Source of the DNA: a virus
Taxonomy: Duplodnaviria; Heunggongvirae; Uroviricota; Caudoviricetes
Direction: 5' to 3' (one strand)
DNA length: 64,000 nucleotides
Virus record (IMG/VR): IMGVR_UViG_3300031417_000403
Span: 187,133 to 251,132 of that record
The notes under the pieces are model-generated. The model saw only the letters and a program-made list of their open reading frames with translations. It did not search any database and was not told the origin of the DNA. The position numbers and the translations under genes were made by a program. Shown here in pieces: positions 1-46,530 of the stretch; positions within the stretch are counted from its first letter, which is position 1; every line of letters starts with the position of its first letter.

Positions 1-14
1 CGACGGAGAGATTG

Positions 15-23
15 TGGTATAAT
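15..23 (+). promoter_or_regulatory. extended -10 promoter (tggtataat) of conserved promoter-RBS cassette
   Basis: followed ~25 nt later by ccggagaacaacATG. Confidence 0.5.
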
Positions 24-48
24 CTCTCTGTCACAACCGGAGAACAAC

Positions 49-186
49 ATGGATCAAACGATGGAATTCGAGTACGACGACATTGTCGAGGCTTACACCA
101 AAGCTGAAGAGTACACGCTGAAAGGTTACGAAGTAACCAAGCCGCGCCTGATCACCGGCAAGTACTGCATCACCGTGCAATCGTAA
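49..186 (+). CDS. small hypothetical protein (45 aa) immediately downstream of promoter-RBS cassette
   Basis: ATG at 49 preceded by tggtataat ... ccggagaacaac; ORF to TAA 184-186. Confidence 0.4.
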   Translation: MDQTMEFEYDDIVEAYTKAEEYTLKGYEVTKPRLITGKYCITVQS

Positions 187-419
187 TGCACGTCGGCCCA
201 GTCACAGCAGTTGCTGTGACACCGCTCCCACGCATTGTGCCACCTGAAACGATGGCACTCATGATGCAGGCGATGGGAACAAATTTGCCCCGGCCAGTGA
301 GCCGGGTTTTACCTTATCCGCGTCTTGAAGAACCAAGAATAAAAGCAATCGCGCCCATTGAGGCGTATCGTGAACAGATGCGCGAACCAACACAGCACTA
401 CATCGACGTGTACTGCTAA
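186..419 (+). CDS. hypothetical protein (77 aa)
   Basis: ORF track; TAATG stop-start overlap with upstream ORF. Confidence 0.35.
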
Positions 420-448
420 AGAATTCTTTTCACCTTAGGAGCATCACC

Positions 449-1726
449 ATGTCACGAGAACAACAAATCGCCGAACTGCAAAACGATTGGGAAACCAATC
501 CACGCTGGCAAGGCATCAAACGAAACTACACGGCAGAAGATGTCGTGAACCTCCGCGGCTCGCTTCAAATCGAGCACACACTCGCAAAGCGTGGCGCAGA
601 AAAACTCTGGACGCTTCTGCAAGACGAACCGTTCGTCAACGCACTCGGTGCATTGACCGGCAATCAAGCGATGCAGCAAGTCAAAGCTGGTCTCAAAGCA
701 ATCTACCTTTCCGGCTGGCAAGTTGCCGGCGACGCCAATCTCGCTGGCGAAATGTATCCGGACCAATCGCTGTATCCAGCGAACTCGGTGCCGATGGTCG
801 TCAAGCGCATCAACAACACGTTCCAACGTGCTGACCAGATTCAATGGGCAGAAGGCAAGAACGACATCGACTTCTTCGCGCCGATCGTCGCCGACGCTGA
901 AGCCGGTTTCGGTGGTGTGCTGAACGCTTTCGAACTGATGAAGTCGATGATCGAAGCTGGTGCATCCGGCGTTCACTTCGAAGACCAGTTGGCATCCGTC
1001 AAGAAGTGCGGTCACATGGGCGGCAAAGTCCTGGTGCCGACTCGCGAAGCCATCGAGAAGCTGAACGCTGCTCGACTCGCAGCAGACGTGATGGGAACTC
1101 CGACGCTGGTCATCGCACGCACCGACGCAGAAGCTGCTGACCTGTTGACGTCCGACATCGATCCGAACGACCGACCTTTCGTCGATGGTGAACGTACCGT
1201 CGAAGGTTTCTTCCGCGTTGCTGCTGGTCTCGAACAAGCAATCTCGCGTGGTCTCGCTTACGCACCGTATGCCGATCTGGTCTGGTGTGAAACCGGCAAG
1301 CCTGACCTGGCGTACGCCAAGCAGTTCGCCGATGCAATCCACGAGAAATTCCCGGGCAAGATGCTGGCATACAACTGCTCTCCATCGTTCAACTGGAAGA
1401 AAAACCTGGACGACGCGACGATCGCCAAGTTCCAGAAAGAACTCGGCGCGATGGGTTACAAGTTCCAATTCATCACGCTGGCTGGTTTCCACTCGCTGAA
1501 CTACGGCATGTTCAACCTCGCACACGGCTACGCACGTCGTCAGATGTCTGCGTTCGTCGAACTGCAAGAAGCGGAATTCGCCGCAGCAGACAAAGGCTTC
1601 ACGGCCGTCAAGCACCAGCGCGAAGTCGGTACTGGTTACTTCGATGCAGTGTCGCAAGCGATCCAGCAGAATCAAAGCTCGACAACTGCCCTGCACGGTT
1701 CGACTGAAGAAGAGCAGTTCAAGTAA
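449..1726 (+). CDS. aceA: isocitrate lyase
   Basis: 425 aa; ICL signature KKCGHMGGK; length typical; RBS aggagc upstream. Confidence 0.9.
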
Positions 1727-1754
1727 TAAACGCTGTACATTCTCCGTGGTTGCA

Positions 1755-1762
1755 GGTATAAT
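1755..1762 (+). promoter_or_regulatory. promoter -10 (ggtataat); 36-nt exact repeat of the 2591 cassette
   Basis: gcaggtataatgaacccatcaactacggagaatcaa. Confidence 0.55.
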
Positions 1763-1787
1763 GAACCCATCAACTACGGAGAATCAA

Positions 1788-1922
1788 ATGGCTGTCAAAT
1801 ATAATAAAGCCTTTTGTGTTGTTCTGATTTTATTGGCCCTCGTTGGAAATGATGGGGACGATGATCCGATACCTCCTGGAAACCGTATTAAAATTCCCTA
1901 TAAACGAAAGGAAATACAATGA
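1788..1922 (+). CDS. small hydrophobic/secreted protein (44 aa)
   Basis: ATG 25 nt after cassette gcaggtataatgaacccatcaactacggagaatcaa; hydrophobic N-terminus. Confidence 0.45.
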   Translation: MAVKYNKAFCVVLILLALVGNDGDDDPIPPGNRIKIPYKRKEIQ

Positions 1923-2566
1923 GCCAGCAGACGATGTCGACGCTTTTCCCCATTATTATTGTGGCAGTCATACTTTATTTTGTATTTGCCAGAAAATCAA
2001 GTGGAAGTAAAGGCACTTCTTCAAGTGCAGAAGCTTCGCTGTGGACCAATCGTCATATTGAATTTGTCAGCGAGCTGAAGAACCCATTATCTACTGCCCC
2101 ATTCCGAATGCAGCCCGGCCCAGCGATTCAACGTGGCGTTGTTCTCATGAAAAATGAAGAGCTCATTGTAGACGCCCCAGTAAAAATGTTTCGCACTGTA
2201 AAGACTGGTGCACAGTGGAAATCGGGGTCCCGTGGCGTCCGTGTAACGCCTGTGAAGGGTCTCAGCTTTAACGTAGGCGGATCGCGCGGCCGAATGCAAG
2301 CAACCTATTCTAGCGATATGGAATTGGGCTATTTCACCATGACGAATAAGCGACTGATTTTTACCGGTGATAATAATTTCCGCTTCGCCATTCCATTAAC
2401 GAAATTGGATAATGTGTCGAAAGACGAGTCCATTATTCACTTTGATGTAAAATCGCGTGACGTGCCAGATTTTGGTATTTGCTTTATCGACTCAGCTATC
2501 GCGACAATGTTTTCTTCGTTGCTTAGCGACGATCAGCAGTCGTTCAACTTTAATTTTATCGCATAA
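1919..2566 (+). CDS. membrane protein (N-terminal TM helix), unknown function
   Basis: 215 aa ORF, hydrophobic N-terminus PIIIVAVILYFVF. Confidence 0.55.
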   Translation: MSQQTMSTLFPIIIVAVILYFVFARKSSGSKGTSSSAEASLWTNRHIEFVSELKNPLSTAPFRMQPGPAIQRGVVLMKNEELIVDAPVKMFRTVKTGAQWKSGSRGVRVTPVKGLSFNVGGSRGRMQATYSSDMELGYFTMTNKRLIFTGDNNFRFAIPLTKLDNVSKDESIIHFDVKSRDVPDFGICFIDSAIATMFSSLLSDDQQSFNFNFIA

Positions 2567-2590
2567 CGCTGTGCTTTTCTAGCAGTTGCA

Positions 2591-2598
2591 GGTATAAT
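2591..2598 (+). promoter_or_regulatory. promoter -10 (ggtataat); exact repeat of the 1755 cassette
   Basis: identical 36-mer. Confidence 0.55.
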
Positions 2599-2625
2599 GA
2601 ACCCATCAACTACGGAGAATCAAAC

Positions 2626-2841
2626 ATGGCCAAGTATAACCGGATCAACAACAAAGGCACCTACAACTGCGAACTCTGCGGCAAGCTGACTCGTGACACT
2701 GGCCATGGTGAAGCAGACATCAACGAGGGCTACTGCAAGAAGTGCTATCTCGACTGCCTGATGGAAAACGCGTACAATGACTACGGTCCTGACTCCGAGC
2801 AGTACAAGAGCGCCAAGGCCGATTACGAGGCTTGCGAATGA
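2626..2841 (+). CDS. zinc-ribbon protein (CxxC...CxxC)
   Basis: 71 aa; CELCGK...CKKCYLDC; exact copy of upstream promoter cassette precedes it. Confidence 0.55.
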   Translation: MAKYNRINNKGTYNCELCGKLTRDTGHGEADINEGYCKKCYLDCLMENAYNDYGPDSEQYKSAKADYEACE

Positions 2842-3046
2842 GCATCTTGCTCTTCCGCTACGTTCGGCGGGCCAGCAAGAATCACAGCAGCCCGTCGCCG
2901 AAGACGCCGCTGTCCTTCGTCTGGAAGCTGTTGCCTTTCTTCATCGTGAAGGCAGCAGCAAAACGCTGGTGTCCGACAAAGCGTATCAACAACACGATGT
3001 ACGTCGAAGCATTTCCAAAAACCTTTATCTCGATTGGACCGGCCAA

Positions 3047-3346
3047 ATGAAAAAGTTCCTGATGAAACTGCTCGGCATCGAACCGGCTGACAAGAAGCTG
3101 GCACGGCTCGAAGCCAATCACGTGGTCAACAAGGAAAGCATCGACCGCGTGCAGAACTCGCTGGACCGTCTCGTGAAGATTCACGCAGAATACGTCGGCG
3201 ATGACGATCACAAACAGAAGATCGCCGAGCACATCGAGCTGGTCAAGAGCAAGCTGAAAGCTGCTCGCGCCACGTACGCCGAGAACGAAATTCTTCTCAA
3301 CCTGATTCGCAACACTCTCGAAGCAGAGAAGGGAATCTACGCATGA
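3047..3346 (+). CDS. hypothetical protein (start uncertain, possible GTG at 2969)
   Basis: C-terminal part of ORF 2777..3346; first ATG after upstream stop. Confidence 0.35.
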   Translation: MKKFLMKLLGIEPADKKLARLEANHVVNKESIDRVQNSLDRLVKIHAEYVGDDDHKQKIAEHIELVKSKLKAARATYAENEILLNLIRNTLEAEKGIYA

Positions 3347-3615
3347 CGCAATACACCATCGAACATCCGGGCCCGCGTCCGAAGTCGCTGTACGACAGCC
3401 ATGACATCTACGTCACCGTTGACGAAGAAGACGAAGTCGCTGTCGCCCAACTCGAAGCACTGATCCGCTATGGCGTGGTCGTGCGGCCATCAACCAAAGA
3501 AGAAGAGGACCACGTCTGGGGTCTGGAAGTGGAACTCGACTACGATGACCTCGATGTCGCTCGCCACTGGCCGGAAGAAGAAGGCGAGATTATCCTCGAA
3601 ATCAAGGACTGGTAA
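3343..3615 (+). CDS. acidic hypothetical protein (90 aa)
   Basis: ORF track, ATGA overlap. Confidence 0.5.
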   Translation: MTQYTIEHPGPRPKSLYDSHDIYVTVDEEDEVAVAQLEALIRYGVVVRPSTKEEEDHVWGLEVELDYDDLDVARHWPEEEGEIILEIKDW

Positions 3616-3616
3616 T

Positions 3617-3712
3617 ATGCGCAGAGGTGGCCGCGAGATGACTCGCAAAGAAGCACTTGGCTGCATTGCACTGAGTTTCCTGATCCTCATCATCGTTGCC
3701 ATTTTCAGCTAA
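3617..3712 (+). CDS. tiny membrane protein (31 aa)
   Basis: ATG at 3617, hydrophobic C-terminus LILIIVAIF. Confidence 0.3.
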   Translation: MRRGGREMTRKEALGCIALSFLILIIVAIFS

Positions 3713-3957
3713 TGCAATCACTCAAACATTCATGGATCGAAGTCATCGCCAACATCGGCTCTGGCTTCATTATTTCTGGACTCTTCCAGCAATTTGTAAT
3801 CACGCCACTGTTTCATCTGCAAACATCGACCAGCCAAAACATCGGCATCACGATTCTGTTTACGATCGTGTCAATCGTACGATCGATTCTGTGGCGTCGT
3901 TTCTTCAACCGGATAACCATCAGACACTATGAGCGCTCCAAACTTCGTGGCAATTAA
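3712..3957 (+). CDS. small membrane protein (81 aa, 2 TM)
   Basis: ORF track; hydrophobic segments. Confidence 0.45.
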   Translation: MQSLKHSWIEVIANIGSGFIISGLFQQFVITPLFHLQTSTSQNIGITILFTIVSIVRSILWRRFFNRITIRHYERSKLRGN

Positions 3958-4129
3958 ACGCTGGTTCAAAGAGAACCGGTCCGACATTCCGCAACATCAG
4001 ATCGATCGTTTCATCGACGAGCCGGCGTACGCGCTGCTCATGTCGGCATCGTTCGAAGCCGGTCGTGAATTCCAGCAACGCAATCCGGAAGCCGGCAAGT
4101 TCCTCGACTTCGGCGTGGAATACAAATGA
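3929..4129 (+). CDS. hypothetical protein (66 aa)
   Basis: ORF track. Confidence 0.45.
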   Translation: MSAPNFVAIKRWFKENRSDIPQHQIDRFIDEPAYALLMSASFEAGREFQQRNPEAGKFLDFGVEYK

Positions 4130-4677
4130 AGCATCCGACAACCGGCGAGTTTATGGTGCCGGTCTTTGACCACTACCATAACCAGCTTCGCACAATGATG
4201 ATTCTCGCGAAGCCAGAAGATGACGTGCCCTGCGTCATCGACGAACAAGGCACGTTCTGGGCGACAGCTAAAATCATGACGAAGCTCACTGGCGAGTATT
4301 ACTACATCGTCAACGAAGACTTCGACCCAATCATTCGCGTCAGCTACGAAGACGGCAAAGTCTACAAAGACGAACGCAGTGGCTGGGGTCGCACGCACAC
4401 CATTACGTTCGCCGACCTGGAAGACCTGGCAGCGAAATGGGAAGTGCCGTTTGACGTTGGCGCAGATTCGCAAGAGTTTGCAGAGACGGCTTACAAGCTG
4501 ATGACGGCAGAACATTTCCGTTATCACGGTCTCGACTACACGCGGTTCTTGCCAACACCATCGAACAAGTTCCTGCCATCATTGCCGGAACCAGAAGTCG
4601 ATGGTAATTACACAGCAGAGCAAATGCGCGCCTACGGCGAAGCATGCGCAAAAGCTGCACTAGACGAGTACAAGTGA
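4126..4677 (+). CDS. hypothetical protein (183 aa)
   Basis: ORF track, ATGA overlap. Confidence 0.55.
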   Translation: MKHPTTGEFMVPVFDHYHNQLRTMMILAKPEDDVPCVIDEQGTFWATAKIMTKLTGEYYYIVNEDFDPIIRVSYEDGKVYKDERSGWGRTHTITFADLEDLAAKWEVPFDVGADSQEFAETAYKLMTAEHFRYHGLDYTRFLPTPSNKFLPSLPEPEVDGNYTAEQMRAYGEACAKAALDEYK

Positions 4678-4700
4678 TGTACATTTCCGTAGAAGGTGGG

Positions 4701-4706
4701 TATAAT
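4701..4706 (+). promoter_or_regulatory. promoter -10 TATAAT
   Basis: gggtataatctttccatcgactacggagattcaaATG. Confidence 0.5.
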
Positions 4707-4731
4707 CTTTCCATCGACTACGGAGATTCAA

Positions 4732-4932
4732 ATGACCACTGTGTACGAAAACAAGAACAATCCCGAACTGAGCATCGTCAAGCTCGACGACAAAACGCTG
4801 CAAGATGGTGGCATCACCGTCACGGACGTCGGCGTCGGTTTCCTGGCGAAAGCCTGGAACGGCAAGGAAGTTTACATCGACGACGAGATGGTCAAGCAGA
4901 TGGTCATCATGATGCAGAACCGGAAAGACTGA
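4732..4932 (+). CDS. hypothetical protein (66 aa)
   Basis: ATG after cassette gggtataatctttccatcgactacggagattcaa. Confidence 0.5.
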   Translation: MTTVYENKNNPELSIVKLDDKTLQDGGITVTDVGVGFLAKAWNGKEVYIDDEMVKQMVIMMQNRKD

Positions 4933-5207
4933 TGAAGCTCTACATCGTCAACATCAAACGGCCGTGGAATCCGGTGGCCGTCCGCGATTACGAAATCAAG
5001 GTCTGCAAGAAGTCCGTGTGGGCTATTGCCAAGACCGGTCGTCGTTTTCTCCTGGGCGCCAGTGCTTTCCAAACTCTGGCGTCGGCTGAACGATGCCGTA
5101 CAGCGCTGCTCGAACAAATCCACAACAGCCAGTGGCAGAAGAACAACCGCCAATACGGATGGGCGGCAACTGATGCTGTGCTGCAACAAATGCAAACACT
5201 TCACTGA
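4932..5207 (+). CDS. hypothetical protein (91 aa)
   Basis: ATG overlapping upstream TGA. Confidence 0.45.
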   Translation: MKLYIVNIKRPWNPVAVRDYEIKVCKKSVWAIAKTGRRFLLGASAFQTLASAERCRTALLEQIHNSQWQKNNRQYGWAATDAVLQQMQTLH

Positions 5208-5208
5208 T

Positions 5209-5586
5209 ATGACATTCAAAGTTGGCGATGCCGTCATGCTCAGCAGCGACGGCAACACATTCGACACGTACCATGCATGGGCAGACCGCGCAGCGCACGT
5301 GCCGCTTTTCACGTACGGCGGATTGCCGGTTGTTGGCAAAGCGTATCGAATCACGCATGTCGGCGCCCACGAGTTCCAGCGTCCGAACAACACACCAATG
5401 CCGTTGTACGTGCTCGATCACGAGTTCATCGTCGGCGTTACCTACATGCATCACATAAAGGAAACAGCAGATGGGATACAAAGCGGAGACACCAAGTCCG
5501 GGAAAATTTCGAAGCCACGAACCGGTAAATGGGTGGCCGACGGTAATCATACGCACGTATCGCAGAACCCCGTCGGGTTTGGTTGA
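5209..5586 (+). CDS. hypothetical protein (126 aa; 3' end overlaps next gene, possible frameshift)
   Basis: ATG at 5209 after TGA of upstream gene. Confidence 0.4.
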   Translation: MTFKVGDAVMLSSDGNTFDTYHAWADRAAHVPLFTYGGLPVVGKAYRITHVGAHEFQRPNNTPMPLYVLDHEFIVGVTYMHHIKETADGIQSGDTKSGKISKPRTGKWVADGNHTHVSQNPVGFG

Positions 5587-5758
5587 AGACACGCTGCATC
5601 TGCAGACCGATCATCCACCTGCACTCGGTGAACACGTGCAGGGCCTTGACTTCGAGTACCACAAAGTGATCGAAGTCAAAAAGTCGTATCAAGAGCAAAG
5701 CCCGCCGGTGATTTACGTCACGTGCGAAAAGCCGCGTGATGGTTCGTTGAACTGCTAA
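5471..5758 (+). CDS. hypothetical protein (95 aa)
   Basis: strong RBS aaggaaacagcag before ATG. Confidence 0.5.
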   Translation: MGYKAETPSPGKFRSHEPVNGWPTVIIRTYRRTPSGLVEDTLHLQTDHPPALGEHVQGLDFEYHKVIEVKKSYQEQSPPVIYVTCEKPRDGSLNC

Positions 5759-5796
5759 AGTAGTGTGCAACAGTGGAGTCATTGGGTATAATGGCT

Positions 5797-5802
5797 TCAC
5801 TG
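5797..5802 (+). promoter_or_regulatory. promoter -10 TATAAT
   Basis: gggtataatggcttcactgacctactgcggaacgaacATG. Confidence 0.5.
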
Positions 5803-5820
5803 ACCTACTGCGGAACGAAC

Positions 5821-6441
5821 ATGGACTACGTCAACTTTCAATATCTGTTTCCACCTCGGCCCGAACTGAAGATTGCCAAGGAAAACCTTGGCTTCTATCA
5901 GAAGCGCGGTTACGTCGCACAGAAGAAAAAGAACGGTACGTGCACCGTGATCTTCGCAAAAGGCGATCAAGTCATCTTCAAGACCCGTCATCCTGAAATC
6001 GACAACGGCGACCATCGCATGTGGACGCCGCAGGAAGACCACATCAAATTCTTCTCCGGCTCTGAAGGCTGGAATGTCTTCGTCGCCGAACTGCTGCACA
6101 GCAAAGTTACTGGCGGCCCGAAACACGAACTGTTCATCTTCGATCAACTCGTCTCGAATGGCGTGTCGCTTGCCGGCACCACGTTCGGTTCGCGTATGAT
6201 AGCGATGATGAAAAAGTTCGGCGGTGTTTCCGAATCCGACCAGTATCGCATCGACGACCGCATCACGCTGGCGAAATGTTTTGGTGCTGGCTTCACGGCT
6301 CTGTTCGACAAGCTCGGCAAAGAAGACGAAGGCCTTGTGCTGAAAGACCCGAAAGCAATCTTGCTGCCGTGCCACAAAGCTGACTCCAACAAATCGTGGC
6401 AAGTCAAGTGCCGCATCCCTCACGCGAATTACTCGTTCTAA
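5821..6441 (+). CDS. minimal ATP-dependent polynucleotide ligase-like nucleotidyltransferase (206 aa)
   Basis: covalent nucleotidyltransferase motifs I KKKNGT, IV EGLVLK, V WQVKCR; promoter cassette upstream. Confidence 0.6.
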   Translation: MDYVNFQYLFPPRPELKIAKENLGFYQKRGYVAQKKKNGTCTVIFAKGDQVIFKTRHPEIDNGDHRMWTPQEDHIKFFSGSEGWNVFVAELLHSKVTGGPKHELFIFDQLVSNGVSLAGTTFGSRMIAMMKKFGGVSESDQYRIDDRITLAKCFGAGFTALFDKLGKEDEGLVLKDPKAILLPCHKADSNKSWQVKCRIPHANYSF

Positions 6442-25689: not shown

Positions 25690-25717
25690 AGTACTTTACA
25701 TCCTGTTGGTCATTCGG

Positions 25718-25723
25718 TATAAT
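25718..25723 (+). promoter_or_regulatory. promoter -10 TATAAT
   Basis: ggtataatctctacatcaa shared with the 27237 copy. Confidence 0.5.
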
Positions 25724-25753
25724 CTCTACATCAACTGACCAACAGGACGCATC

Positions 25754-30547: not shown

Positions 30548-32200
30548 ATGAAACTCAAACCTTTGCCAAAAGCAATTCTGGTCGCAGTCGTTCTCGCTGG
30601 TGTCGGCTTCGGCGTTCACACCGCGATGAATAAAGGCTACTTCAAGTCGCGCGCTACGATCGAAGCATCCGTGCCGGACAAGATCGACCTCCCAACTGCA
30701 GCTGCAAACCAGACCGCGTCGACCGGCACCATCACCACTGCAGCAGTGAACTCGCACGAAACCATCCGCGTCAAGACCCTCGCATGGAACGCGACGGCCG
30801 GCATGCACTACGCCAACGGCGACGCCGACACGACCTCCGATTCGCTGATGGCGAAGCGTGGCCTGAAGGTCAACATCCGTCGCGAAGACGACTACAGCAA
30901 GATGATCGCCGATCTGGCATCGTTCGCCAAAGACAACTCGACCGGCGTGCACTTCGTCGTCATCATGGGCGACGGCTATCCGGCATTCGTCAAGGGCGCC
31001 AACGACGCACTGAAGCCGTTCGACCAATCCGTCGAAGTGGTGGGCGCACTGGGCTACAGCCGCGGCGAAGACAAGTGCATCATCGACAAGAATGCACGTC
31101 CGCAGGGTTCGCTGATTGCTGGCGTGCTCGGCGATGGCGACATCAACATCTGCATCAAGTATGCGGCCGACAACGGCATCAAGGTCAACTCCGATCCGAA
31201 GACCTACGATCCGGAAGCGATGAACTTCGTGGGCGTTTCGTCCTTCACCGACGGCGACGAGAAGTTCATCGCTGGCGCAAGCGACCGCGGCCATCCGATC
31301 AACGGTACCGCAACCTGGACCCCGGGCGATGTCAAAGTTGCAACGAAGCGCGGCAACATCAAGGTGCTGGCGTCGACGAAAGAATACGCATGGCAGATGC
31401 CGGCCGTCGTGATCGGCAATAAGAAGTGGATGGCTGCACACCCGAACGAGGTGAAGGCTTTCCTGGCGGCAGCATTCGAAGGCGGTGAAGCAGTTCGCAG
31501 CAGCGATCAAGCACTGCTGAAAGCCGGCGCGGTCGAAGCCAAGGTGTATGGCGAAGGCGATGCGAACTACTGGGCCAAGTACTTCAAGGGCACGACTGAA
31601 AACGGCGTATCGCTCGGCGGCTCGACCACGAACGGACTCGCAGACAATGCGTTCTTGTTCGGCCTGAAAGGCGCCGACAACCTGTACAAGAAAGTGTACA
31701 ACGTGTACGGCAACATCGCGGTCAAGTACTTCCCGGACAACCTGCCGAAGCTGATTCCGTACGATCAAGTTGTGAACACCTCGTATCTCGAGGGCCTGCT
31801 GCAGAACTCGAACGTGAGCGTCGAATCGGCTGCTACGCCGACGTACGGTGGCCAGAAGTCCGAGGTCGTCGGTAACAAGTCGTACAGCATCGAGTTCGAC
31901 ACCGGCAAGACGACCTTCAAGCCGGCATCGATCGCTGTGCTGAACGAGCTGCTGGACCAGATCGCTGTCTCGGGCCTGTCGGTGCAAATCAACGGTCACA
32001 CCGACAGCAAGGGTAATCCGGAAGCAAACCTGGCCCTGTCGAAGAAGCGTGCTGAAGCAGTGGCGAACTTCCTCCGCGCGAATGCGCCGAGCAACTTCCC
32101 GGCCGAGCGTATCTCGACCCGCGGCTTCGGCGACACGCAGCCGATCGGTTCGGATGCTCAGAACCGCCGCGTGGAAATTGTGTTGTACTCCACGAAGTAA
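30548..32200 (+). CDS. membrane-anchored periplasmic solute-binding-like domain fused to C-terminal OmpA-like peptidoglycan-binding domain
   Basis: N-terminus paralogous to the 36706 gene; C-terminus NGHTDSKGNPEANLALSKKRAEAV (OmpA_C motif); 550 aa. Confidence 0.6.
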   Translation: MKLKPLPKAILVAVVLAGVGFGVHTAMNKGYFKSRATIEASVPDKIDLPTAAANQTASTGTITTAAVNSHETIRVKTLAWNATAGMHYANGDADTTSDSLMAKRGLKVNIRREDDYSKMIADLASFAKDNSTGVHFVVIMGDGYPAFVKGANDALKPFDQSVEVVGALGYSRGEDKCIIDKNARPQGSLIAGVLGDGDINICIKYAADNGIKVNSDPKTYDPEAMNFVGVSSFTDGDEKFIAGASDRGHPINGTATWTPGDVKVATKRGNIKVLASTKEYAWQMPAVVIGNKKWMAAHPNEVKAFLAAAFEGGEAVRSSDQALLKAGAVEAKVYGEGDANYWAKYFKGTTENGVSLGGSTTNGLADNAFLFGLKGADNLYKKVYNVYGNIAVKYFPDNLPKLIPYDQVVNTSYLEGLLQNSNVSVESAATPTYGGQKSEVVGNKSYSIEFDTGKTTFKPASIAVLNELLDQIAVSGLSVQINGHTDSKGNPEANLALSKKRAEAVANFLRANAPSNFPAERISTRGFGDTQPIGSDAQNRRVEIVLYSTK

Positions 32201-32256
32201 GCTGATGTACAATAGGGAGACCTCCGGGTTTCCCTAATTTTCTTTCAGGACTCAAC

Positions 32257-32448
32257 ATGCTTATCATTCTCGGCTACATCGTTCTCGGCATCGTCATCTA
32301 CAACGTTCCGTCGATGATCGCTCTGCTTCGACTCCACAACAACGGCCATCGCATCGTCATGATGAACATGGTACTCGGTTGGACCATCGTCGGCTGGTTC
32401 ACTGCACTGTTCTGGTCGCTACAATCTCCGACGGCTGACTACAAATGA
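32257..32448 (+). CDS. imm: superinfection immunity (Imm-family) membrane protein
   Basis: NMVLGWTIVGWFTALFWSL matches Imm_superinfect family core; 63 aa, 2 TM. Confidence 0.55.
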   Translation: MLIILGYIVLGIVIYNVPSMIALLRLHNNGHRIVMMNMVLGWTIVGWFTALFWSLQSPTADYK

Positions 32449-32585
32449 ACCAAGCGTTCTACGAGCATGCGAAGAAAATCATAGAGAATCTGACTGTTGA
32501 AGAGCTCTATGAAGCACTCACAAAAGCCGGCATCGACGTGACGGTTCGACAATATCCAGAACCCGAGAAAAAGGACGAAGAATGA
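32445..32585 (+). CDS. small hypothetical protein (46 aa)
   Basis: ATGA overlap. Confidence 0.3.
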   Translation: MNQAFYEHAKKIIENLTVEELYEALTKAGIDVTVRQYPEPEKKDEE

Positions 32586-32824
32586 AAGCAAGTCTGATAG
32601 TATTAGCTTTGATCGCTGCAAGTCTTTCGGCCTGCATGCGTAAGGAAAGGCCGGAACCGCAGCCGACCAATGCTGCCAACGTGAAGATCGTAAGCGTAGA
32701 ACCGGGTAACTATAATGTTTACCAACACTGCATCAAGGGCGTCGCTTACCTCACGTATTCGAAAACCATCATCGTTCAAGTGACCGAAGATGGTAAACCT
32801 CAGACATGTGTGGTGTCGCCATGA
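32582..32824 (+). CDS. small lipoprotein (80 aa)
   Basis: lipobox LSAC. Confidence 0.5.
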   Translation: MKASLIVLALIAASLSACMRKERPEPQPTNAANVKIVSVEPGNYNVYQHCIKGVAYLTYSKTIIVQVTEDGKPQTCVVSP

Positions 32825-33027
32825 CCAAAACCAAACGTAAGACCAAGCAAGACAAGCTGGACCAAGAAGCTCGTACCAGAATCATTGCATCGCTAAATAA
32901 TTTCTTCTCCGACTTGAACGAAATCAGTAATGACACTGGTTACGACATTCCGGACTTGCACTACAACAGCTTGTCGGTTCTGCATCGTGAACTGTGCGAG
33001 CAGAGGGAGAAACATGATGCTGCATAA
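32821..33027 (+). CDS. hypothetical protein (68 aa)
   Basis: ATG overlapping upstream TGA. Confidence 0.4.
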   Translation: MTKTKRKTKQDKLDQEARTRIIASLNNFFSDLNEISNDTGYDIPDLHYNSLSVLHRELCEQREKHDAA

Positions 33028-33235
33028 ACTTTCCGACTGGTACGACAGCCTGCACGAGCCATACCGCTTCTTCACGTTCATCTACTTTGTGTTCGGTGCA
33101 TTCTTCCCGTTCGCAATGGCGATGTTCACGTTCGACGCCAAGATTATCTTCTGGCCGTACGTGTTCGCGACGTTGGGCATGCTGCATCTCGCGTTCTTCT
33201 ACTCATTTGCCATCTACCGGGCAACTCGAAAGTAA
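33014..33235 (+). CDS. small membrane protein (73 aa)
   Basis: two hydrophobic helices. Confidence 0.45.
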   Translation: MMLHKLSDWYDSLHEPYRFFTFIYFVFGAFFPFAMAMFTFDAKIIFWPYVFATLGMLHLAFFYSFAIYRATRK

Positions 33236-33237
33236 AA

Positions 33238-34026
33238 ATGTTCAACTCACTGTTTACACCTTTTTATGCTGGGCGCAAGTTCAGCATCAAGTTTCTTGCA
33301 GCCTTTCAACTCGTGGTTCTCGCGGTTGTATGGGTTCTGTTGCCGGCAAGCAGTGGTATTCCGTCGCCATCGGCAATCGCCTCCGCGTGGAACGACCTTG
33401 CACTGAAGCAAGGTCTTCTGCTGGAACTCTTTAAGTCCGTAGCCGTGATCTGGGAAGCGCTCATCCTGTCAGCGTTAATTTCCTTCGGCGCTGCCTACCT
33501 CACAACTGCGGACTTCTTTAAACCTGGAGCAACGTTCATCGCGTCGCTCCGATTCCTCGGCTTCGCCGGTCTGACGTTCCTCTTCACACTGTGGGTTGGC
33601 GGAAATGGTTCGCACCTGAAACTGGCCATGTTGACGTTCGGCATGACTGTGTTCTTGATGCGGTCGACCGTGGACGAAATCAAAGCGATTCCATTGGAGT
33701 CCATCGACTACGCTCGATCGCTGGGCATGAACGGATGGCACATCACATATGAAATCGGTGTGTTGGGTCGACTGCATGTGATGCTGGACCTGCTCCGCCA
33801 AAATGCGGCAATCGGCTGGACGCTGATCGTGATGGTTGAATCGTACGTCCGCAGCGATGGTGGTATCGGTGCTCTGCTGGCGGTGCAAGCAAAGTACTTC
33901 AACCTGCCGGCCGTGTTCGCGATTCAACTGACGATTCTCGCGTATGGTATCATTCAAGATATGTTGCTTGATCTGCTGCGCGCCACCGTCTGCCCTTACA
34001 CCAATCTAAACCGGAGTGATCGATAA
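33238..34026 (+). CDS. ABC transporter permease (binding-protein-dependent, SsuC/TauC/NrtB-like)
   Basis: 6 TM pattern with EAA-like loop ESIDYARSLGMNGWHITYEIGVLGRLHVML. Confidence 0.75.
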   Translation: MFNSLFTPFYAGRKFSIKFLAAFQLVVLAVVWVLLPASSGIPSPSAIASAWNDLALKQGLLLELFKSVAVIWEALILSALISFGAAYLTTADFFKPGATFIASLRFLGFAGLTFLFTLWVGGNGSHLKLAMLTFGMTVFLMRSTVDEIKAIPLESIDYARSLGMNGWHITYEIGVLGRLHVMLDLLRQNAAIGWTLIVMVESYVRSDGGIGALLAVQAKYFNLPAVFAIQLTILAYGIIQDMLLDLLRATVCPYTNLNRSDR

Positions 34027-34427
34027 TGGATCGCAAAATTGCACTGAAGTGGGCACGTGCCCTTGAAAGCGGCGAGTATGGCCAAACAACCGGCGCACTG
34101 CGTGAAGGCAACAAGTTCTGTTGTCTTGGTGTCCTCTGCAATCTGCATGCTCAAGCACATCCAGAAATTGCAAAGGACGAAACTGACCCAGAGAAATACA
34201 TGGGCAAAGAAGGCGAGCTGCCGGAACAAGTGATGCACTGGGCCGGCATGCGATCCGATAATGGAAAAATCGGTGATGGCGTGAGACTCAAAGTCCGCGA
34301 CAAGAAGAGCCACAGTCAAGACGAGATGACAGAATACATTCGCGATCTGATCGATCTGAATGACCATTACGAATTCGACTTCCCAAAGATCGCGAAAGTA
34401 ATTCGCGAACATTCCGACAAACTGTGA
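34026..34427 (+). CDS. hypothetical protein (133 aa)
   Basis: ORF track. Confidence 0.5.
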   Translation: MDRKIALKWARALESGEYGQTTGALREGNKFCCLGVLCNLHAQAHPEIAKDETDPEKYMGKEGELPEQVMHWAGMRSDNGKIGDGVRLKVRDKKSHSQDEMTEYIRDLIDLNDHYEFDFPKIAKVIREHSDKL

Positions 34428-34450
34428 TGTGCAAGAAATAGGTTACGAAG

Positions 34451-34456
34451 TATAAT
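34451..34456 (+). promoter_or_regulatory. promoter -10 TATAAT
   Basis: gtataatggcttcgtaacc. Confidence 0.45.
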
Positions 34457-34497
34457 GGCTTCGTAACCTAACTGCACAGGAGATTAAAGGCTAACCA

Positions 34498-34791
34498 ATG
34501 TCATTTCCAATTCGCCCACTGGGCCCAAAAGACGTCGTGAAGAGCGGCATTCCCGAATTTGTCATCGAAGCGGTCAACGAACTCATCAGTGAGAAGTACA
34601 ACGATAGTTCGTTCGTCATTCGTCAGAACGAAGTGAAGGATCGCATCATGTCGAAGACCACACAGGACTTCGACTGGGAATGGCTCAACTTCGAAAAAAT
34701 TTACCGCGACGCAGGGTGGTACGTCGAATACGACAAACCCGCTTACTGCGAAAGCTACGAAGCATTTTTCAAATTTACTCCGAAAAGATAA
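34498..34791 (+). CDS. hypothetical protein (97 aa)
   Basis: ATG after gtataatggcttcgtaacc...ggagattaaaggctaacc. Confidence 0.5.
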   Translation: MSFPIRPLGPKDVVKSGIPEFVIEAVNELISEKYNDSSFVIRQNEVKDRIMSKTTQDFDWEWLNFEKIYRDAGWYVEYDKPAYCESYEAFFKFTPKR

Positions 34792-34794
34792 AAC

Positions 34795-35649
34795 ATGAGT
34801 TCGAATACCGCTAAAAGCCCCAACGTCCTGCTGTATGGTATTGCAGGTCTCGTCATCATCGCCATCGCCACGTTCTTCCTCGTGTGGCTGTTGGCCATGC
34901 GAACCGAGACCGTGGAACCCGGCCACGAGCTGGTCATCATCGACAAGCCGTACTTCTTCGGCTCCAGCGGTGTACGCGATGAAACCCTGAAGCAAGGTCG
35001 TATTCTGCTGTTCCGAACGTCGGACGTCGAGCCGGTACGAATGACACCGCAATCATACAACGTCAAGTTCGACGACCTGTCGTCGGCAGACAACATCTTG
35101 CTGGACTTCGAATCCACGATCCAGTTCAAGATTACCGACGCGAAAGTGCTGGTGAGCAAGTTCGGATCGAAGGATTGGTTCGTCAACAACTTGCAACGCC
35201 AATACATGTCGATCGTGCGCGAGGCTGTCAAGAAGGAAACCATGACGGACATGATGTCCAATGCTGAAACGTCGACACGTGTTGACACCTACGTTACCGA
35301 TGCGCTGCAAAAGCTCGTGGCGGAAAGCAAGTTGCCAATCGCGATTCTCGGCGTTACGCTGGGTCGTGCGAAGCCGAACGACAACGTCTTGCTGCAGATG
35401 AACGAGACCGCTGCTCAACAGCAACGTAACAAGACGTTGATCGCCGCGACCGCTGCAGAAGAACAACGTGCGAAAGAGCAGACCGCAAAGGCCGCAGCTG
35501 ACAACGCGTACCGTAACGCGCTGGGCATGAACAGCGAGCAGTTCATCCAACTCGAAGCCATCAAGCGTTACTCCGAAGCCTGTGCCAAGTCGGAACGCTG
35601 CATCGTGACTCCGGGCATGGGCACCAACGTGCTGGTAACTGGAAAGTAA
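34795..35649 (+). CDS. SPFH/band-7 (stomatin/HflK-like) membrane protein
   Basis: N-terminal TM, SPFH core, Ala/Gln/Glu-rich coiled-coil tail. Confidence 0.65.
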   Translation: MSSNTAKSPNVLLYGIAGLVIIAIATFFLVWLLAMRTETVEPGHELVIIDKPYFFGSSGVRDETLKQGRILLFRTSDVEPVRMTPQSYNVKFDDLSSADNILLDFESTIQFKITDAKVLVSKFGSKDWFVNNLQRQYMSIVREAVKKETMTDMMSNAETSTRVDTYVTDALQKLVAESKLPIAILGVTLGRAKPNDNVLLQMNETAAQQQRNKTLIAATAAEEQRAKEQTAKAAADNAYRNALGMNSEQFIQLEAIKRYSEACAKSERCIVTPGMGTNVLVTGK

Positions 35650-35650
35650 A

Positions 35651-36448
35651 ATGGAATACAAACTCGAAGAACGCATGCTGACCATCACTGGTCTTGGCTT
35701 GTCGTACGGTAACAAAGTCATCTTGCGCGACATCAACCTCGTGATCGACAACGTGGTACGACCGGGGCTGAATCAAGGCCAGTGCGTCGCGCTGCTCGGA
35801 CCGTCCGGCTGTGGCAAGACGCAGCTGTTCCGATGCATCGCCGGTCTGCAACGACCGACGCTCGGCACGATCGAGTTTGGCGAAATCGAAGAAGGAAAAA
35901 TCGGCAAAGCGCCGGAGCCCGGAAGTGTTGGTGTTGTGCAGCAAGCATATCCGCTGTTGCAACACCGCACCATCATGGGCAACCTAACGCTCGTCTGCAA
36001 AGACAAGAAGAGGGTTGTCGAGATGCTGACTCGTTTCGGCCTGCAAGATCATGGCGACAAGTATCCAGTGCAGTTGTCTGGTGGTCAACGTCAACGCGTT
36101 GCCATCATTCAACAGATGCTGATTTCCGACCGTCACTTCTTGTTGATGGACGAACCGTTCTCCGGTCTCGACATCATCGCAAAAGACAAGGTGTGCGATC
36201 TGATCAACGAAGTGAATCTCGTTGATGAACTGAACACGACCATCTTCACTACACACGATCTAGAATCCGCGATTCAAATCGCCGACACGATCTGGGTGAT
36301 GGGTCGTGAAGAAGGAAAACCCGGCGCGACGATCGTCAAGATATACGATCTGAAAGCCATGGGCCTTGCGTGGCAGCCCAACGTGACGAAGCATCCAATG
36401 TTCGTGCCACTGCTGAACGAGCTGCACGATTTGTTTCATACTCTGTAA
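35651..36448 (+). CDS. ABC transporter ATP-binding protein
   Basis: Walker A GPSGCGKT, signature LSGGQRQRVAI, Walker B LLMDEPFSGLD. Confidence 0.85.
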   Translation: MEYKLEERMLTITGLGLSYGNKVILRDINLVIDNVVRPGLNQGQCVALLGPSGCGKTQLFRCIAGLQRPTLGTIEFGEIEEGKIGKAPEPGSVGVVQQAYPLLQHRTIMGNLTLVCKDKKRVVEMLTRFGLQDHGDKYPVQLSGGQRQRVAIIQQMLISDRHFLLMDEPFSGLDIIAKDKVCDLINEVNLVDELNTTIFTTHDLESAIQIADTIWVMGREEGKPGATIVKIYDLKAMGLAWQPNVTKHPMFVPLLNELHDLFHTL

Positions 36449-36478
36449 TCTGCTGTGTACAAATCCGGTACCACAGGC

Positions 36479-36484
36479 TATAAT
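36479..36484 (+). promoter_or_regulatory. promoter -10 TATAAT
   Basis: ggctataatagcttcacataaccaaacggagtttgaATG. Confidence 0.5.
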
Positions 36485-36511
36485 AGCTTCACATAACCAA
36501 ACGGAGTTTGA

Positions 36512-36694
36512 ATGAACACGAAAAGTCAGAACATCGAAAATCAGATCGATGACGCGCTCGAAGCAGGCGATGCCAATAAGCTGGACTTGGCGTTGCGTGC
36601 ACAGTATCACTTCCAGTGCCGCGGCATGTCGGTAAGTACCGAAGGCCACGAGTACGATTTGGTCAAGACCATTGACCCGAACTTCTACGGATAA
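36512..36694 (+). CDS. small hypothetical protein (60 aa)
   Basis: ATG after ggctataatagcttcacataaccaaacggagtttga. Confidence 0.4.
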   Translation: MNTKSQNIENQIDDALEAGDANKLDLALRAQYHFQCRGMSVSTEGHEYDLVKTIDPNFYG

Positions 36695-36705
36695 GGACCA
36701 ACATC

Positions 36706-37815
36706 ATGGCAAAGCTCAAAGCTCTCCCAAAAGCACTGATCGTCGCAGCAATCGTCGGCGCCGCCGGTTTCGGCGCGTACAAGTTCATGCCGAAGCATGA
36801 CAAGACCGAAGTGGCCGAAACGAAAGACGCCGAAGTCGCGGCAGCACCGGAAGTTCAACGTGGCGATCCCGTCGCACCGCGTGAAGAACTGCCGACGCGT
36901 GAACCCGCAAGCGTGAACGCGGTACCATCCGAATCCTCGCTCGAAGTCGCAAACGGCCAGAAACTTCCTGGCGCCGGCATCGCGTCCGGCCAGAAGACCG
37001 GCACCAACTATCCGATGGTCGAAGACATCATCAAGGTCTGCTCGACGCCGGATTACCCGCTGCGCAACGTCATCACCAACGGTTCCGTCGACAACATCAA
37101 CAAGATTTACACCGACAAGAACTCGCAGTTCGGCATCATTCAAGAAGATGCGCTGGACTACCAACGCAAGATCGATCCGAAGATGATGTCGCGCGTCGTC
37201 GCAGTCTTCCCGTTCTTCTCGGTCGAAGTCCACGCCATCGCCAAGAACGGCGCACCGATCAACTCGCTGGCTGACATGGCCGGCAAGCGCGTAGTGGAAG
37301 GTCCGGAAGGTTCCGGCACGTGGGTTACCGTGCAGCTCATCAAGCAGATGACCGGCATCAAGTGGAACACTGTGTCCGGCAACCTGTCGCAGAAAGACGG
37401 TCTCGCTGCAGTGCAACGTGGCGACGCCGACGTCGAGTTCATCGTGGCCGGTCAACCGATCACGGTGCTGACGACCGCCAAAGGCATCAAGCTGGTGCCG
37501 CTGAGCAATCCGACGCTCGACAAGTACGGGTACTACACGAAGACGTCGCTGGCATCGCACACGTACGGCTTCCAAGGCGACGCTGTGCCGACGTACAAGG
37601 TCAACAACGTGCTGGCCACGTTCGCGTACAAGAACCAGTACCAGAAGGAAATCGGTACGCTCGTCAGCTGCATCACGAAAAACGTGGACAACCTGCAAGC
37701 TGATGGTCATCCGAAATGGCGTGACGTCGATCCGCTCGACATCGAACGGGTGAACTGGCCTGTGCATCCGGCCGCACTGGCCGCAATCAAACGTGAAGCG
37801 AAAGGTCGTAAATAA
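36706..37815 (+). CDS. membrane-anchored periplasmic solute-binding protein (TAXI/NMT1-like fold)
   Basis: N-terminal anchor paralogous to the 30548 gene; GQKTGTNYPM resembles TAXI GxTGG-YYP motif. Confidence 0.6.
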   Translation: MAKLKALPKALIVAAIVGAAGFGAYKFMPKHDKTEVAETKDAEVAAAPEVQRGDPVAPREELPTREPASVNAVPSESSLEVANGQKLPGAGIASGQKTGTNYPMVEDIIKVCSTPDYPLRNVITNGSVDNINKIYTDKNSQFGIIQEDALDYQRKIDPKMMSRVVAVFPFFSVEVHAIAKNGAPINSLADMAGKRVVEGPEGSGTWVTVQLIKQMTGIKWNTVSGNLSQKDGLAAVQRGDADVEFIVAGQPITVLTTAKGIKLVPLSNPTLDKYGYYTKTSLASHTYGFQGDAVPTYKVNNVLATFAYKNQYQKEIGTLVSCITKNVDNLQADGHPKWRDVDPLDIERVNWPVHPAALAAIKREAKGRK

Positions 37816-38315: not shown

Positions 38316-38333
38316 CACGAAAGGAAGTCATCC

Positions 38334-44594: not shown

Positions 44595-44595
44595 A

Positions 44596-44796
44596 ATGGA
44601 CGGCTGGGACGGTTGGTCACGACCCCAGCTGCCTCCACCGAAAACAACGGTCACCGAATATTTCGCGACTCGAAAGCCAAAAGATACTTGGCCTGACGAG
44701 TTTCGCGAGATAGTTTGGGATCGTGGAATGCCACATGAGTCGCGTGAACGTATCACACGCGACGATCCGCGGTGGAACGAAGCCGAGACAATTTAA
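44596..44796 (+). CDS. hypothetical protein (66 aa)
   Basis: ORF track. Confidence 0.4.
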   Translation: MDGWDGWSRPQLPPPKTTVTEYFATRKPKDTWPDEFREIVWDRGMPHESRERITRDDPRWNEAETI

Positions 44797-44831
44797 AGAT
44801 GTACACGAATGGACCGATGTAGTATAATTGG

Positions 44832-44837
44832 TCCATT
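44832..44837 (+). promoter_or_regulatory. promoter -10 TATAAT
   Basis: gtataattggtcc. Confidence 0.45.
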
Positions 44838-45300: not shown

Positions 45301-46530
45301 ATGTCGAAATCTATCGCAGTTATCGGCGCCGGTTATGGCGACGAAGGCAAAGGCCTTGCAACCGACTTCTTCTCGCGTCACTACAATGCAGCCATGGTGG
45401 CTCGCGGCAATGGTGGCGCACAAGCTGGTCACACTGTCGTCGATGGCGATAAGCGACATGTCTTCGGCCACGTCGGCTCCGGCGCGTTCGCTGGTGTTCC
45501 AACGTATCTGAGTTCCGGCTTCATCGCGAATCCGTACATGCTCAATCGTGAGCTGAAAGAACTCGGCACTCGCCAACGCGTCTACATCTCGCCCAACAGC
45601 CGCGTCACCACGTACTACGACATGGCCATCAACTCGCTGATCGAAATCAAGCGCGGTGCGGCACGTCATGGTTCGTGCGGCATGGGCATCAACGAGACCG
45701 TCACGCGTGATCTGGCCGGCTACCATCTCGACATGGCAACCATCAAAGGCAGCGAGTTCGGTATCGCACAAGCCCTGCAGAAAATTCGCGGTCAATGGGT
45801 TCCGAAGCGTATGCAGGAACTCGGCCTGAACAAAGCTGACTTCGAAGGCAACGAAGACGCAATGCGTTTCTTCGAGTACTTCGACGAAACCCAAACGCAA
45901 GTCGAAGACCTGATGCACTATGGCGACATCATGTCGCTGCAGAATCCGAAGTTGTTCCTTGGACAAGATGATGTCGTGGTCGTCGAAGGCGCACAAGGCC
46001 TGATGCTCGACGAATTCCTTGGCGACTTCCCGCACGTCACGCGTTCCGTTACTGGTCTCGCATCGTCGATCCGCGCTGCAGCTGAATGCGGTCGCACGTC
46101 GATCCGTCCAGTGTACATGACTCGTTCGTACGCGACGCGTCACGGTGCCGGCGAACTGCTGTACGAAGGCGCAACCATCACCGACAAAGAACTGGTCGAC
46201 AAGACCAACGTCGACAACCAATGGCAAGGCTCGATCCGTTACGCTCCGCTGAATCTGCATGCGCTCGCATGGTATATCCGCGAAGACATGAAGCGTGGCC
46301 AACACGTTGCACAGCTGTTCGGTGTCGAGGTTCTTCAGCCGAAGCTGTTTGTGACCTGCCTCGACCAACTCGACGAGCACGTGACGATCGTCACCCGCAA
46401 CAAGGACATGCTCAAGCTGAAGTCGGTGAAGCTGCTGGCGTACATCGAAAAAGTCATGGGCATCGAAGTCTGTGCTGCATCGTACGGTCCGTCGGCTGCT
46501 GATGTTCAACTCCTCCACGAAGTACTGTAA
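45301..46530 (+). CDS. purA: adenylosuccinate synthetase (PurA-like; PurZ not excluded)
   Basis: P-loop GYGDEGKG, GGAQAGHTV, EGAQGLMLDEFLGDFPHVTRS match PurA motifs; 409 aa. Confidence 0.75.
   Translation: MSKSIAVIGAGYGDEGKGLATDFFSRHYNAAMVARGNGGAQAGHTVVDGDKRHVFGHVGSGAFAGVPTYLSSGFIANPYMLNRELKELGTRQRVYISPNSRVTTYYDMAINSLIEIKRGAARHGSCGMGINETVTRDLAGYHLDMATIKGSEFGIAQALQKIRGQWVPKRMQELGLNKADFEGNEDAMRFFEYFDETQTQVEDLMHYGDIMSLQNPKLFLGQDDVVVVEGAQGLMLDEFLGDFPHVTRSVTGLASSIRAAAECGRTSIRPVYMTRSYATRHGAGELLYEGATITDKELVDKTNVDNQWQGSIRYAPLNLHALAWYIREDMKRGQHVAQLFGVEVLQPKLFVTCLDQLDEHVTIVTRNKDMLKLKSVKLLAYIEKVMGIEVCAASYGPSAADVQLLHEVL

Follow-up and report, generated by a model that had tools for sequence, protein, structure and literature searches.

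An AceA-type isocitrate lyase gene of probable Oxalobacteraceae origin in an uncultured jumbo phage

The isocitrate lyase locus

We analyzed a stretch of phage DNA of 64,000 nucleotides (the whole stretch is called the window here) that carries an isocitrate lyase (ICL) gene close to its start. A first-pass annotation had described a full-length ICL with the KKCGH signature, and this was confirmed: the ORF has exactly the limits given in Table 1, the signature lies at residues 185-189, and the TAA stop is directly followed by a second TAA. Two details of that annotation had to be corrected. It had counted the ICL as the second gene of the window, and it is the third called gene, since two small ORFs come first. 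It had also described a phage-type ribosome-binding site, where we found an ordinary Shine-Dalgarno sequence with nothing phage-specific about it. Neither of the two small ORFs matched a family in the NCBIfam profile search.

Table 1. Features of the ICL locus, with positions counted from the first nucleotide of the window
Feature	Position	Strand	Basis and details
Promoter-in-hairpin module 5′ of the predicted three-gene unit (putative)	2..32	+	GGTATAAT at 16..23; 14-bp inverted repeat across the -10; RNA fold z = -3.64
Small ORF, 45 aa, gene 1 of the predicted three-gene unit	49..186	+	Gene call on contig
Small ORF, 77 aa, gene 2 of the predicted three-gene unit	186..419	+	Gene call on contig
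Shine-Dalgarno AGGAG	437..441	+	Read from sequence; 7 nt 5′ of the ICL ATG
Isocitrate lyase (AceA-type) CDS	449..1726	+	ORF, ATG start, 425 aa
Promoter-in-hairpin module directly after the ICL stop (putative)	1732..1792	+	Promoter scan, 10/12 matches; fold z = -4.15, -5.16

Promoters were assigned by consensus and over-representation. The sequence GGTATAAT occurs ten times in the window, every time on the plus strand, against 0.28 copies expected. In most copies a TGTACA-like hexamer stands 17 nt away on the 5′ side, and the 3′ side has a conserved leader that includes a GGAGA ribosome-binding site. For the copy at the very start of the window, a weak -35 (AGAACA) lies just outside and was seen in the upstream sequence of contig L001. 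The copy that follows the ICL stop (GGTATAAT at 1755..1762) reads TGTACA (1734), 17 nt, TATAAT (1757..1762), and is placed in a hairpin loop whose arms, 14 bp each, are at 1739..1752 and 1771..1784. Within the 3′ arm is the Shine-Dalgarno sequence GGAGA (1778..1782) of the next gene, which has its ATG at 1788.

This second module marks the predicted 3′ boundary of the ICL unit. The best explanation for the arrangement is that the ICL is the last gene of a predicted three-gene unit (orf45-orf77-ICL) under one phage promoter copy. Host sigma70 RNA polymerase would transcribe the ICL from the phage promoter (TGTACA-17-GGTATAAT) during infection. With the phage's own sigma70-like promoter driving the unit, transcription would thus be independent of host aceA regulation. 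A terminator-like hairpin at 289..306, inside the 77-aa ORF, was rejected because its fold was not above that of shuffled sequences (z = -0.52), and an Rfam scan of positions 1..6000 returned no structured RNA.

Phage genome context

The ICL gene is truly phage-borne, in an uncultured jumbo phage of about 375 kb. On its 5′ side and on the same strand are genes for a UvsW-type helicase, a GH108 endolysin, ribonucleotide reductase (RNR alpha/beta, the large and small subunits) and glutaredoxin. On its 3′ side follow dCMP deaminase, an ATP-dependent DNA ligase, an RNA ligase, a T4-Imm-like superinfection protein and HNH endonucleases, together with many small ORFs without family matches. The window has 26 tRNA genes, 25 of them in an array at its end and one more at 49363. 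We also noticed an amber-suppressor-like tRNA and an avoidance of TAG stops.

A neighbouring protein of 361 aa was most similar to proteins of Burkholderia phage FLC9 (322 kb) and of Xanthomonas phage XacN1 (385 kb). By this protein these two phages are the nearest cultured relatives, and neither has an ICL. Synteny with FLC9 was limited to two adjacent collinear genes, and none of 50,697 phage records was matched when the first 20 kb were searched with megablast. The kinship of the window phage to cultured phages is distant. The premise of the first-pass annotation that this DNA belongs to a phage holds, given the phage genes on both sides of the ICL, the tRNA array and a neighbour protein that is nearest to those of jumbo phages. 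By curated cutoffs, a PurA-like gene at 45301..46530 qualified neither as a genuine PurA nor as a PurZ, and we make no Z-genome claim.

We consider it extremely improbable that the ICL is not phage-encoded, whether as host DNA mis-assembled onto phage DNA or as part of a contig that is a cellular element. Such doubts could be fed by the metagenomic origin of the contig, by the lack of a capsid or terminase gene in the approximately 85 kb read, and by the many ICL-bearing "viral" records that are contaminants (Salmonella WGS contigs in INPHARED and the host-like locus L002). Against them, the exact ICL protein is found on three contigs of the 0.2-1 Mb class (375,534 bp, 375,421 bp) for which JGI and ENA are given as sources, and same-strand phage genes immediately flank the gene on both sides. 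Moreover, two of the ten promoter copies bracket the ICL unit, the codon usage of the ICL is nearer to that of the phage than is the codon usage of any cellular ICL gene, and no cellular sequence was more than 92% identical among the matches listed.

Enzyme identity and active site

Judged from its sequence, the window protein is a true AceA-type isocitrate lyase (EC 4.1.3.1), and neither a methylisocitrate lyase nor a PEP mutase. It matched the Pfam ICL family PF00463 (E 2e-107, score 360 with a cutoff of 26) and scored well above the cutoffs of the NCBIfam equivalogs NF011645 (833.6 bits vs. 562) and TIGR01346 (635.4 bits vs. 275.9). The models for methylisocitrate lyase (PrpB) stayed below their cutoffs (TIGR02317, 100.3 vs. 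354.4; NF008455, 84.4 vs. 353), and so did the model for carboxy-PEP mutase (TIGR02319, 42.2 vs. 420).

Among solved structures, the best match was 3i4e, which we take to be the Burkholderia pseudomallei ICL; it aligned end to end (E 3e-251; query 1-424 with 3i4e 5-432). Escherichia coli AceA (1igw) also aligned end to end (E 4e-197). Mycobacterium tuberculosis (Mtb) ICL1 (5dql/1f61) matched at about E 2e-193 (query 8-424 with Mtb 11-427), and the identity to it was 66.5%. The full-length architecture is present, including the C-terminal lid segment, and the C-terminus falls at the same position as the end of Mtb ICL1.

For the active site, the reference was the Mtb ICL1 sequence, validated as identical to PDB chain 5dql_A. 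Its functional sites, which we take to be those of Sharma et al. 2000, are Y89, S91, G92, W93, D108, D153, E155, H180, E182, K189-H193 (with the cysteine as general base), R228, E285, N313, S315, S317, T347 and L348. In an alignment with 160 homologues, the window protein was identical at 21 of the 21 catalytic, Mg2+-site and substrate-binding positions. Its KKCGH motif aligns to Mtb 189-193 and is invariant in the 160 homologues, and no deviation was found at the 197 alignment columns with at least 95% conservation. The first-pass annotation had named missing active-site residues, or a better fit to a PEP mutase or methylisocitrate lyase, as grounds to reject the ICL assignment; what we found instead is a complete set of sites, with the PrpB and PEP-mutase-type models far below their cutoffs. 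The best explanation is a catalytically competent gene product, predicted from the intact active site to convert isocitrate to succinate and glyoxylate.

The enzyme could in principle be mainly a 2-methylisocitrate lyase for propionate detoxification, or have some other specificity of the ICL/PEP-mutase superfamily, which we regard as quite improbable. The ICL/PEP-mutase fold is common to these enzymes, in agreement with a PF13714 match in the window protein. M. tuberculosis ICL1 also cleaves methylisocitrate, so a side activity on this substrate is plausible. As a main function, however, it is contradicted by the low scores of the PrpB and carboxy-PEP mutase models, by the KKCGH loop and the succinate- and glyoxylate-binding residues, all of them those of AceA, and by the 88-92% identity to annotated cellular AceA.

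Two length differences were considered as phage-specific changes and rejected. Compared with 3i4e, the loop after residue 138 is five residues shorter in the window ICL, but all Oxalobacteraceae and most other homologues have the short loop. The window ICL also lacks the last six C-terminal residues of its Oxalobacteraceae counterparts, but a bacterial ICL (P0007, with ClpB and MoaE as neighbours) is equally short, and the Mtb ICL1 chain stops there as well.

Origin, selection and codon usage

The comparisons indicate that the ICL was captured from a bacterium of the Oxalobacteraceae (Burkholderiales). BLASTP and phylogeny had been proposed in the first-pass annotation to see whether the gene is host-derived; the database relatives and the tree both point that way. 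The best 120 database relatives were 88-92% identical, and the named ones at the top (Massilia, Pseudoduganella, Duganella, Rugamonas, Undibacterium and Janthinobacterium) all belong to the Oxalobacteraceae. A scan with one genome per species agreed with this. In a neighbour-joining tree of 63 sequences, 153 of 200 bootstraps nested the window ICL with the Oxalobacteraceae-type sequences, of which there were 11, and the other IMG/VR viral ICLs (64-81% identity) fell outside this group. We infer the host of the phage only from this ICL phylogeny and from the distant phage relatives.

At the protein level, the similarity to AceA of Massilia sp. TS11, Massilia endophytica, Pseudoduganella flava and Duganella callida extends over the full length (88-92% aa identity), and includes the catalytic residues and the short loop after AEGKND. 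The window ICL has 18 residues that are absent from the 11 Oxalobacteraceae sequences, none of them at conserved columns. The differences are that the window gene is phage-encoded, that its synonymous sites are saturated and that its codon usage is phage-like.

Against the Oxalobacteraceae genes, dN was 0.07-0.11 and dS went from 1.1 to saturated, with dN/dS of 0.03-0.07; dN between the window ICL and the hosts was the same as between hosts. Such a low dN/dS indicates that the function of the ICL has been maintained. The capture cannot be dated: dS has reached saturation in every comparison with a sampled host gene, and the actual donor may not be among those sampled.

Regarding codon usage, GC3 of the window ICL is 0.64, which falls within the range of the phage's remaining genes (0.61 +/- 0.09) and under the values of Massilia/Duganella (0.77-0.87). 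By itself GC3 is ambiguous, since values near 0.64 also occur in some Oxalobacteraceae MAGs; with a donor of that kind (e.g., L087 or L091), GC3 would be a weaker argument for amelioration. AT3 and GC3 skews did not discriminate between phage and host ICL genes. The informative measure was the RSCU correlation: the window ICL reached 0.913 with the other 65 phage genes, where the maximum for 80 cellular ICL genes was 0.868, and its correlation with any Oxalobacteraceae ICL was at most 0.812.

Taken together, the tree, the dN/dS values and the codon data argue that the gene is of cellular origin, that it has been in the phage for long enough to have its codons ameliorated, and that the purifying selection on it is strong. 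The same results argue against a chimeric assembly and against a decaying passenger. We find it hardly credible that the ICL is decaying, or is carried neutrally without any role in infection: FLC9 and XacN1 do without an ICL, which makes it dispensable for this phage type, but dN/dS is very low while dS is saturated, the reading frame is unbroken, no change occurs at the 197 conserved columns or at any catalytic residue, and the gene has a canonical Shine-Dalgarno sequence and codons adapted to the phage. The earlier description of the gene as an auxiliary metabolic gene (AMG) is thus supported by the phage genes on both sides, the Oxalobacteraceae origin, the purifying selection and the phage-like codons.

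Comparison with other phage isocitrate lyases

ICL genes in phages, huge phages included, have already been reported several times, and the window ICL adds one clean, well-supported example. Current views are therefore unchanged by it. Hurwitz et al. (2013) found aceA and aceB in Pacific Ocean viromes (PMC4053976), and Nishimura et al. (2017) described an aceBA operon in the complete 179-kb marine viral genome TARA_ERS478052_N000008 (PMC5332604). These cases and ours have in common a glyoxylate-shunt enzyme in a large T4-like or uncultured phage that is read as an AMG; in the marine cases malate synthase adjoins the ICL, whereas in the window the ICL stands alone.

A recent preprint covered 7,295 huge phages and reported ICL genes (98) and malate synthase genes (22) from 98 of them; 76 of these 98 phages had no malate synthase, and the ICL-only phages came from freshwater, bioreactor and subsurface habitats (10.1101/2025.02.27.640493). 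The window phage is like these in its size (at least 200 kb) and in the absence of a malate synthase alongside the ICL in the approximately 75 kb examined. In IMG/VR we found at least 100 ICL-encoding contigs. Malate synthase lay near the ICL in 11 of the 80 loci fetched, all of them in the group with 67-70% identity.

Within INPHARED, just one deposited record of a complete phage genome had an ICL homologue, that of Phage C48C1 (OQ984149, Kyanoviridae, 156 kb). Its protein, annotated as "hypothetical protein", has 58.7% identity to the window protein at 94% coverage. As in the window, no malate synthase adjoins this ICL; unlike the window phage, C48C1 belongs to a different phage family.

Three jumbo contigs (L008, L038 and L044) are distant relatives of the window phage through a gene block with a PolIII-alpha-fragment and an AAA gene, of which L038 has only the AAA gene. 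Their ICLs are 73-78% identical to the window ICL and lie on the opposite side of this block. The ICL of the 337-kb contig L038 (73% identical) has its own circle of relatives: its best 120 were 78-97% identical, none came from a named organism, and many were on contigs of 94-364 kb. The L038-type ICL is apparently a phage-resident lineage. The window ICL does not belong to that lineage: unlike the L038 type it sits among named cellular sequences, and this points to a separate, host-proximal capture or to replacement by the allele of the current host.

As an account of what happened in this phage lineage, it is rather unlikely that an older phage-resident ICL was replaced by, or independently supplemented with, the allele of the current host. 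If this were true, the ICL of jumbo phages would track the host, much as psbA is exchanged in cyanophages, probably because the phage subunit has to assemble or be regulated together with the host enzyme. What is selected in ICL-only phages might then be, for instance, a supply of glyoxylate or succinate, or redox or iron sparing, and not the complete shunt.

Malate synthase and the role of the enzyme

The first-pass annotation had also stated that malate synthase was absent from the window, and this was borne out. No malate synthase domain was present in the Pfam lists of the genes called in the window and 10 kb upstream (about 75 kb), and tblastn with Salmonella AceB and AceK gave no match in the same DNA. 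With these queries, 11 of 80 viral loci and many bacterial loci did show aceB adjoining the ICL. For the search of the genome that had been suggested, the answer covers approximately 75 kb of the approximately 375-kb genome, and no malate synthase was found there.

A Massilia genome has been reported with both aceA and aceB (PMC13377642), so a host malate synthase is plausibly available. The reading that we consider most likely, with somewhat better than even confidence, is that a captured and retained Oxalobacteraceae ICL raises the flux through the glyoxylate shunt by way of the host malate synthase. The phage ICL would supply the branch-point step of the shunt and the host malate synthase would complete it. 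Isocitrate would thereby be diverted from the two CO2-releasing steps of the TCA cycle, and carbon would be kept as C4 acids (succinate and malate, then oxaloacetate and aspartate) for the biosynthesis demanded by a very large genome. A benefit would be expected on acetate, fatty-acid or storage-polymer carbon, or under nutrient limitation. The timing of expression, the use of the host malate synthase, the physiological benefit and the redirection of carbon flux are all what we infer. Moreover, an extra ICL may divert little flux given an active isocitrate dehydrogenase without AceK-type control.

Alternatively, the ICL could act without the full shunt, which we hold to be possible, if doubtful. 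Glyoxylate would then be used directly (e.g., via glycine for purines) and succinate would feed respiration, or less NADH would be produced in infected cells, and with it would come less oxidative stress and a smaller need for iron-rich respiratory complexes. Several observations fit: no malate synthase in the DNA examined, the 76 ICL-bearing huge phages without one (10.1101/2025.02.27.640493), the proposal by Hurwitz et al. of succinate as a branch point for energy production (PMC4053976), the cited links of the glyoxylate shunt to oxidative stress or nutrient limitation, and the frequent position of the ICL beside RNR and dCMP deaminase genes in viral contigs. On the other hand, Oxalobacteraceae hosts carry malate synthase, which as a rule would condense glyoxylate to malate; glyoxylate is toxic when free; and the Pfam lists of the window contain no glyoxylate aminotransferase or related consumer.

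The locus bears on why most ICL-carrying huge phages have no malate synthase. One option is that the branch-point enzyme alone limits the flux through the shunt in infected cells, and the other is that its products are used differently. As a central-carbon AMG the locus is clean, with an identifiable donor family, an intact active site and a predicted phage promoter of its own. These features make it a good choice for testing a phage ICL biochemically and physiologically for the first time. In the literature searched we found no biochemical characterization of any phage ICL, and the virocell paper listed AceA among host proteins only.

The neighbourhood of the window ICL is one of nucleotide metabolism. 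In the other viral contigs, the gene that the ICL often immediately adjoins is that of the RNR small subunit or of dCMP deaminase, and this position is consistent with co-expression with genes for precursor supply.

Isocitrate lyase in other viruses

Most of the viral isocitrate lyases (ICLs; 424-427 aa, IMG/VR loci L006-L061) seem to form a phage-resident lineage. For the ICL of L038, a 337-kb IMG/VR contig, the best 120 relatives were all unnamed metagenomic proteins, many of them carried by contigs 94-364 kb long. An RNR small-subunit gene stood directly upstream of ICL in at least 12 viral loci, and in two of these loci a dCMP deaminase gene came next after ICL. The malate synthase gene (aceB) adjoined ICL in 11 viral loci, all from the 67-70% identity group.

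Phage C48C1 encodes a homologue of ICL, with 58.7% identity at 94% coverage, whose sole annotation is "hypothetical protein". A peroxiredoxin gene and a NifU-like gene lie near it.

Several ICL-matching INPHARED records labelled as phages are bacterial chromosome contigs or tiny unannotated fragments (AGRM01000005.1, AFYI01000007.1, OR850939.1, OR845679.1, OR845746.1, and CAKLQH/CAKLQF contigs), and one of the bacterial contigs contains the Salmonella aceBAK-iclR locus. Such mislabelled records would push up any naive count of phage ICLs.

On the opposite strand of the window's ICL gene, we rejected a long ORF as a gene, since ORFs of this kind typically arise when the reverse frame is GC3-rich and poor in stop codons.

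Promoter copies and hairpins

The phage promoter family, TGTACA-17 nt-GGTATAAT, is present in the window in 10 copies, compared with 0.28 expected, all of them on the plus strand. At five copies, an inverted repeat of 10-14 bp spans the -10 element, and the RNA fold z of these hairpin-bearing copies ranges from -2.8 to -5.2. The sequence of the hairpin arms varies from copy to copy and their complementarity is kept.

At the copies at 1755 and 4699, the Shine-Dalgarno of the next gene sits within the 3' arm, so the RBS would be masked in read-through RNA and free in RNA initiated inside the hairpin. This arrangement resembles the translational control of T4 genes e and soc. The hairpins could instead be 3'-end stabilisers or operators.

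tRNA genes and stop codons

A tRNA with anticodon CTA begins 35 nt downstream of the promoter copy GGTATAAT at 49321-49328. Among the 114 called genes of the window, 70 end in TAA, 42 in TGA, and only two in TAG; this scarcity suggests amber-stop avoidance or partial recoding.

HNH endonuclease genes and small ORFs are scattered among the tRNA genes of the dense array, where the call at 62097 has an odd 2-base anticodon.

Other genes of the window

A run of host-like genes lies within the phage sequence. Its CTP_transf_like+NUDIX protein is similar to the NMN adenylyltransferase/Nudix enzymes that phages use in NAD+ salvage.

The divergent adenylosuccinate-synthetase-family protein scored 113 bits against a curated PurA cutoff of 402 and 33.5 bits against a PurZ cutoff of 300, both far too low, and we rejected either identity.

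Coordinates of the features discussed (window positions unless a locus or record is named)
Feature	Position	Strand	Details
Antisense ORF	452-1696	-	414 aa; overlaps ICL gene
ICL, L038	L038:10001-11269		
ICL homologue, Phage C48C1 (OQ984149)	L166:7995-9236 = record 44175-45416		Complete Kyanoviridae genome
Promoter family, spans	2-32, 1732-1792, 4683-4727, 5771-5802, 25701-25747	+	Motif GGTATAAT
Further GGTATAAT sites	2591, 17799, 39171, 49321, 55989	+	Motif occurrence
tRNA, anticodon CTA	49363-49438	+	ARAGORN; reported as tRNA-Pyl, i.e. amber-suppressor-like
Dense tRNA array	56360-63982	+	25 genes, many amino acids
Host-like run	30548-39149 and 41059-42282	+	OmpA-domain protein (550 aa); Band_7; ABC ATPase; NMT1_3 substrate-binding protein; Peptidase_S11/beta-lactamase-like protein; CTP_transf_like+NUDIX protein
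Adenylosuccinate-synthetase-family protein	45301-46530	+	Pfam PF00709; phrog_1211
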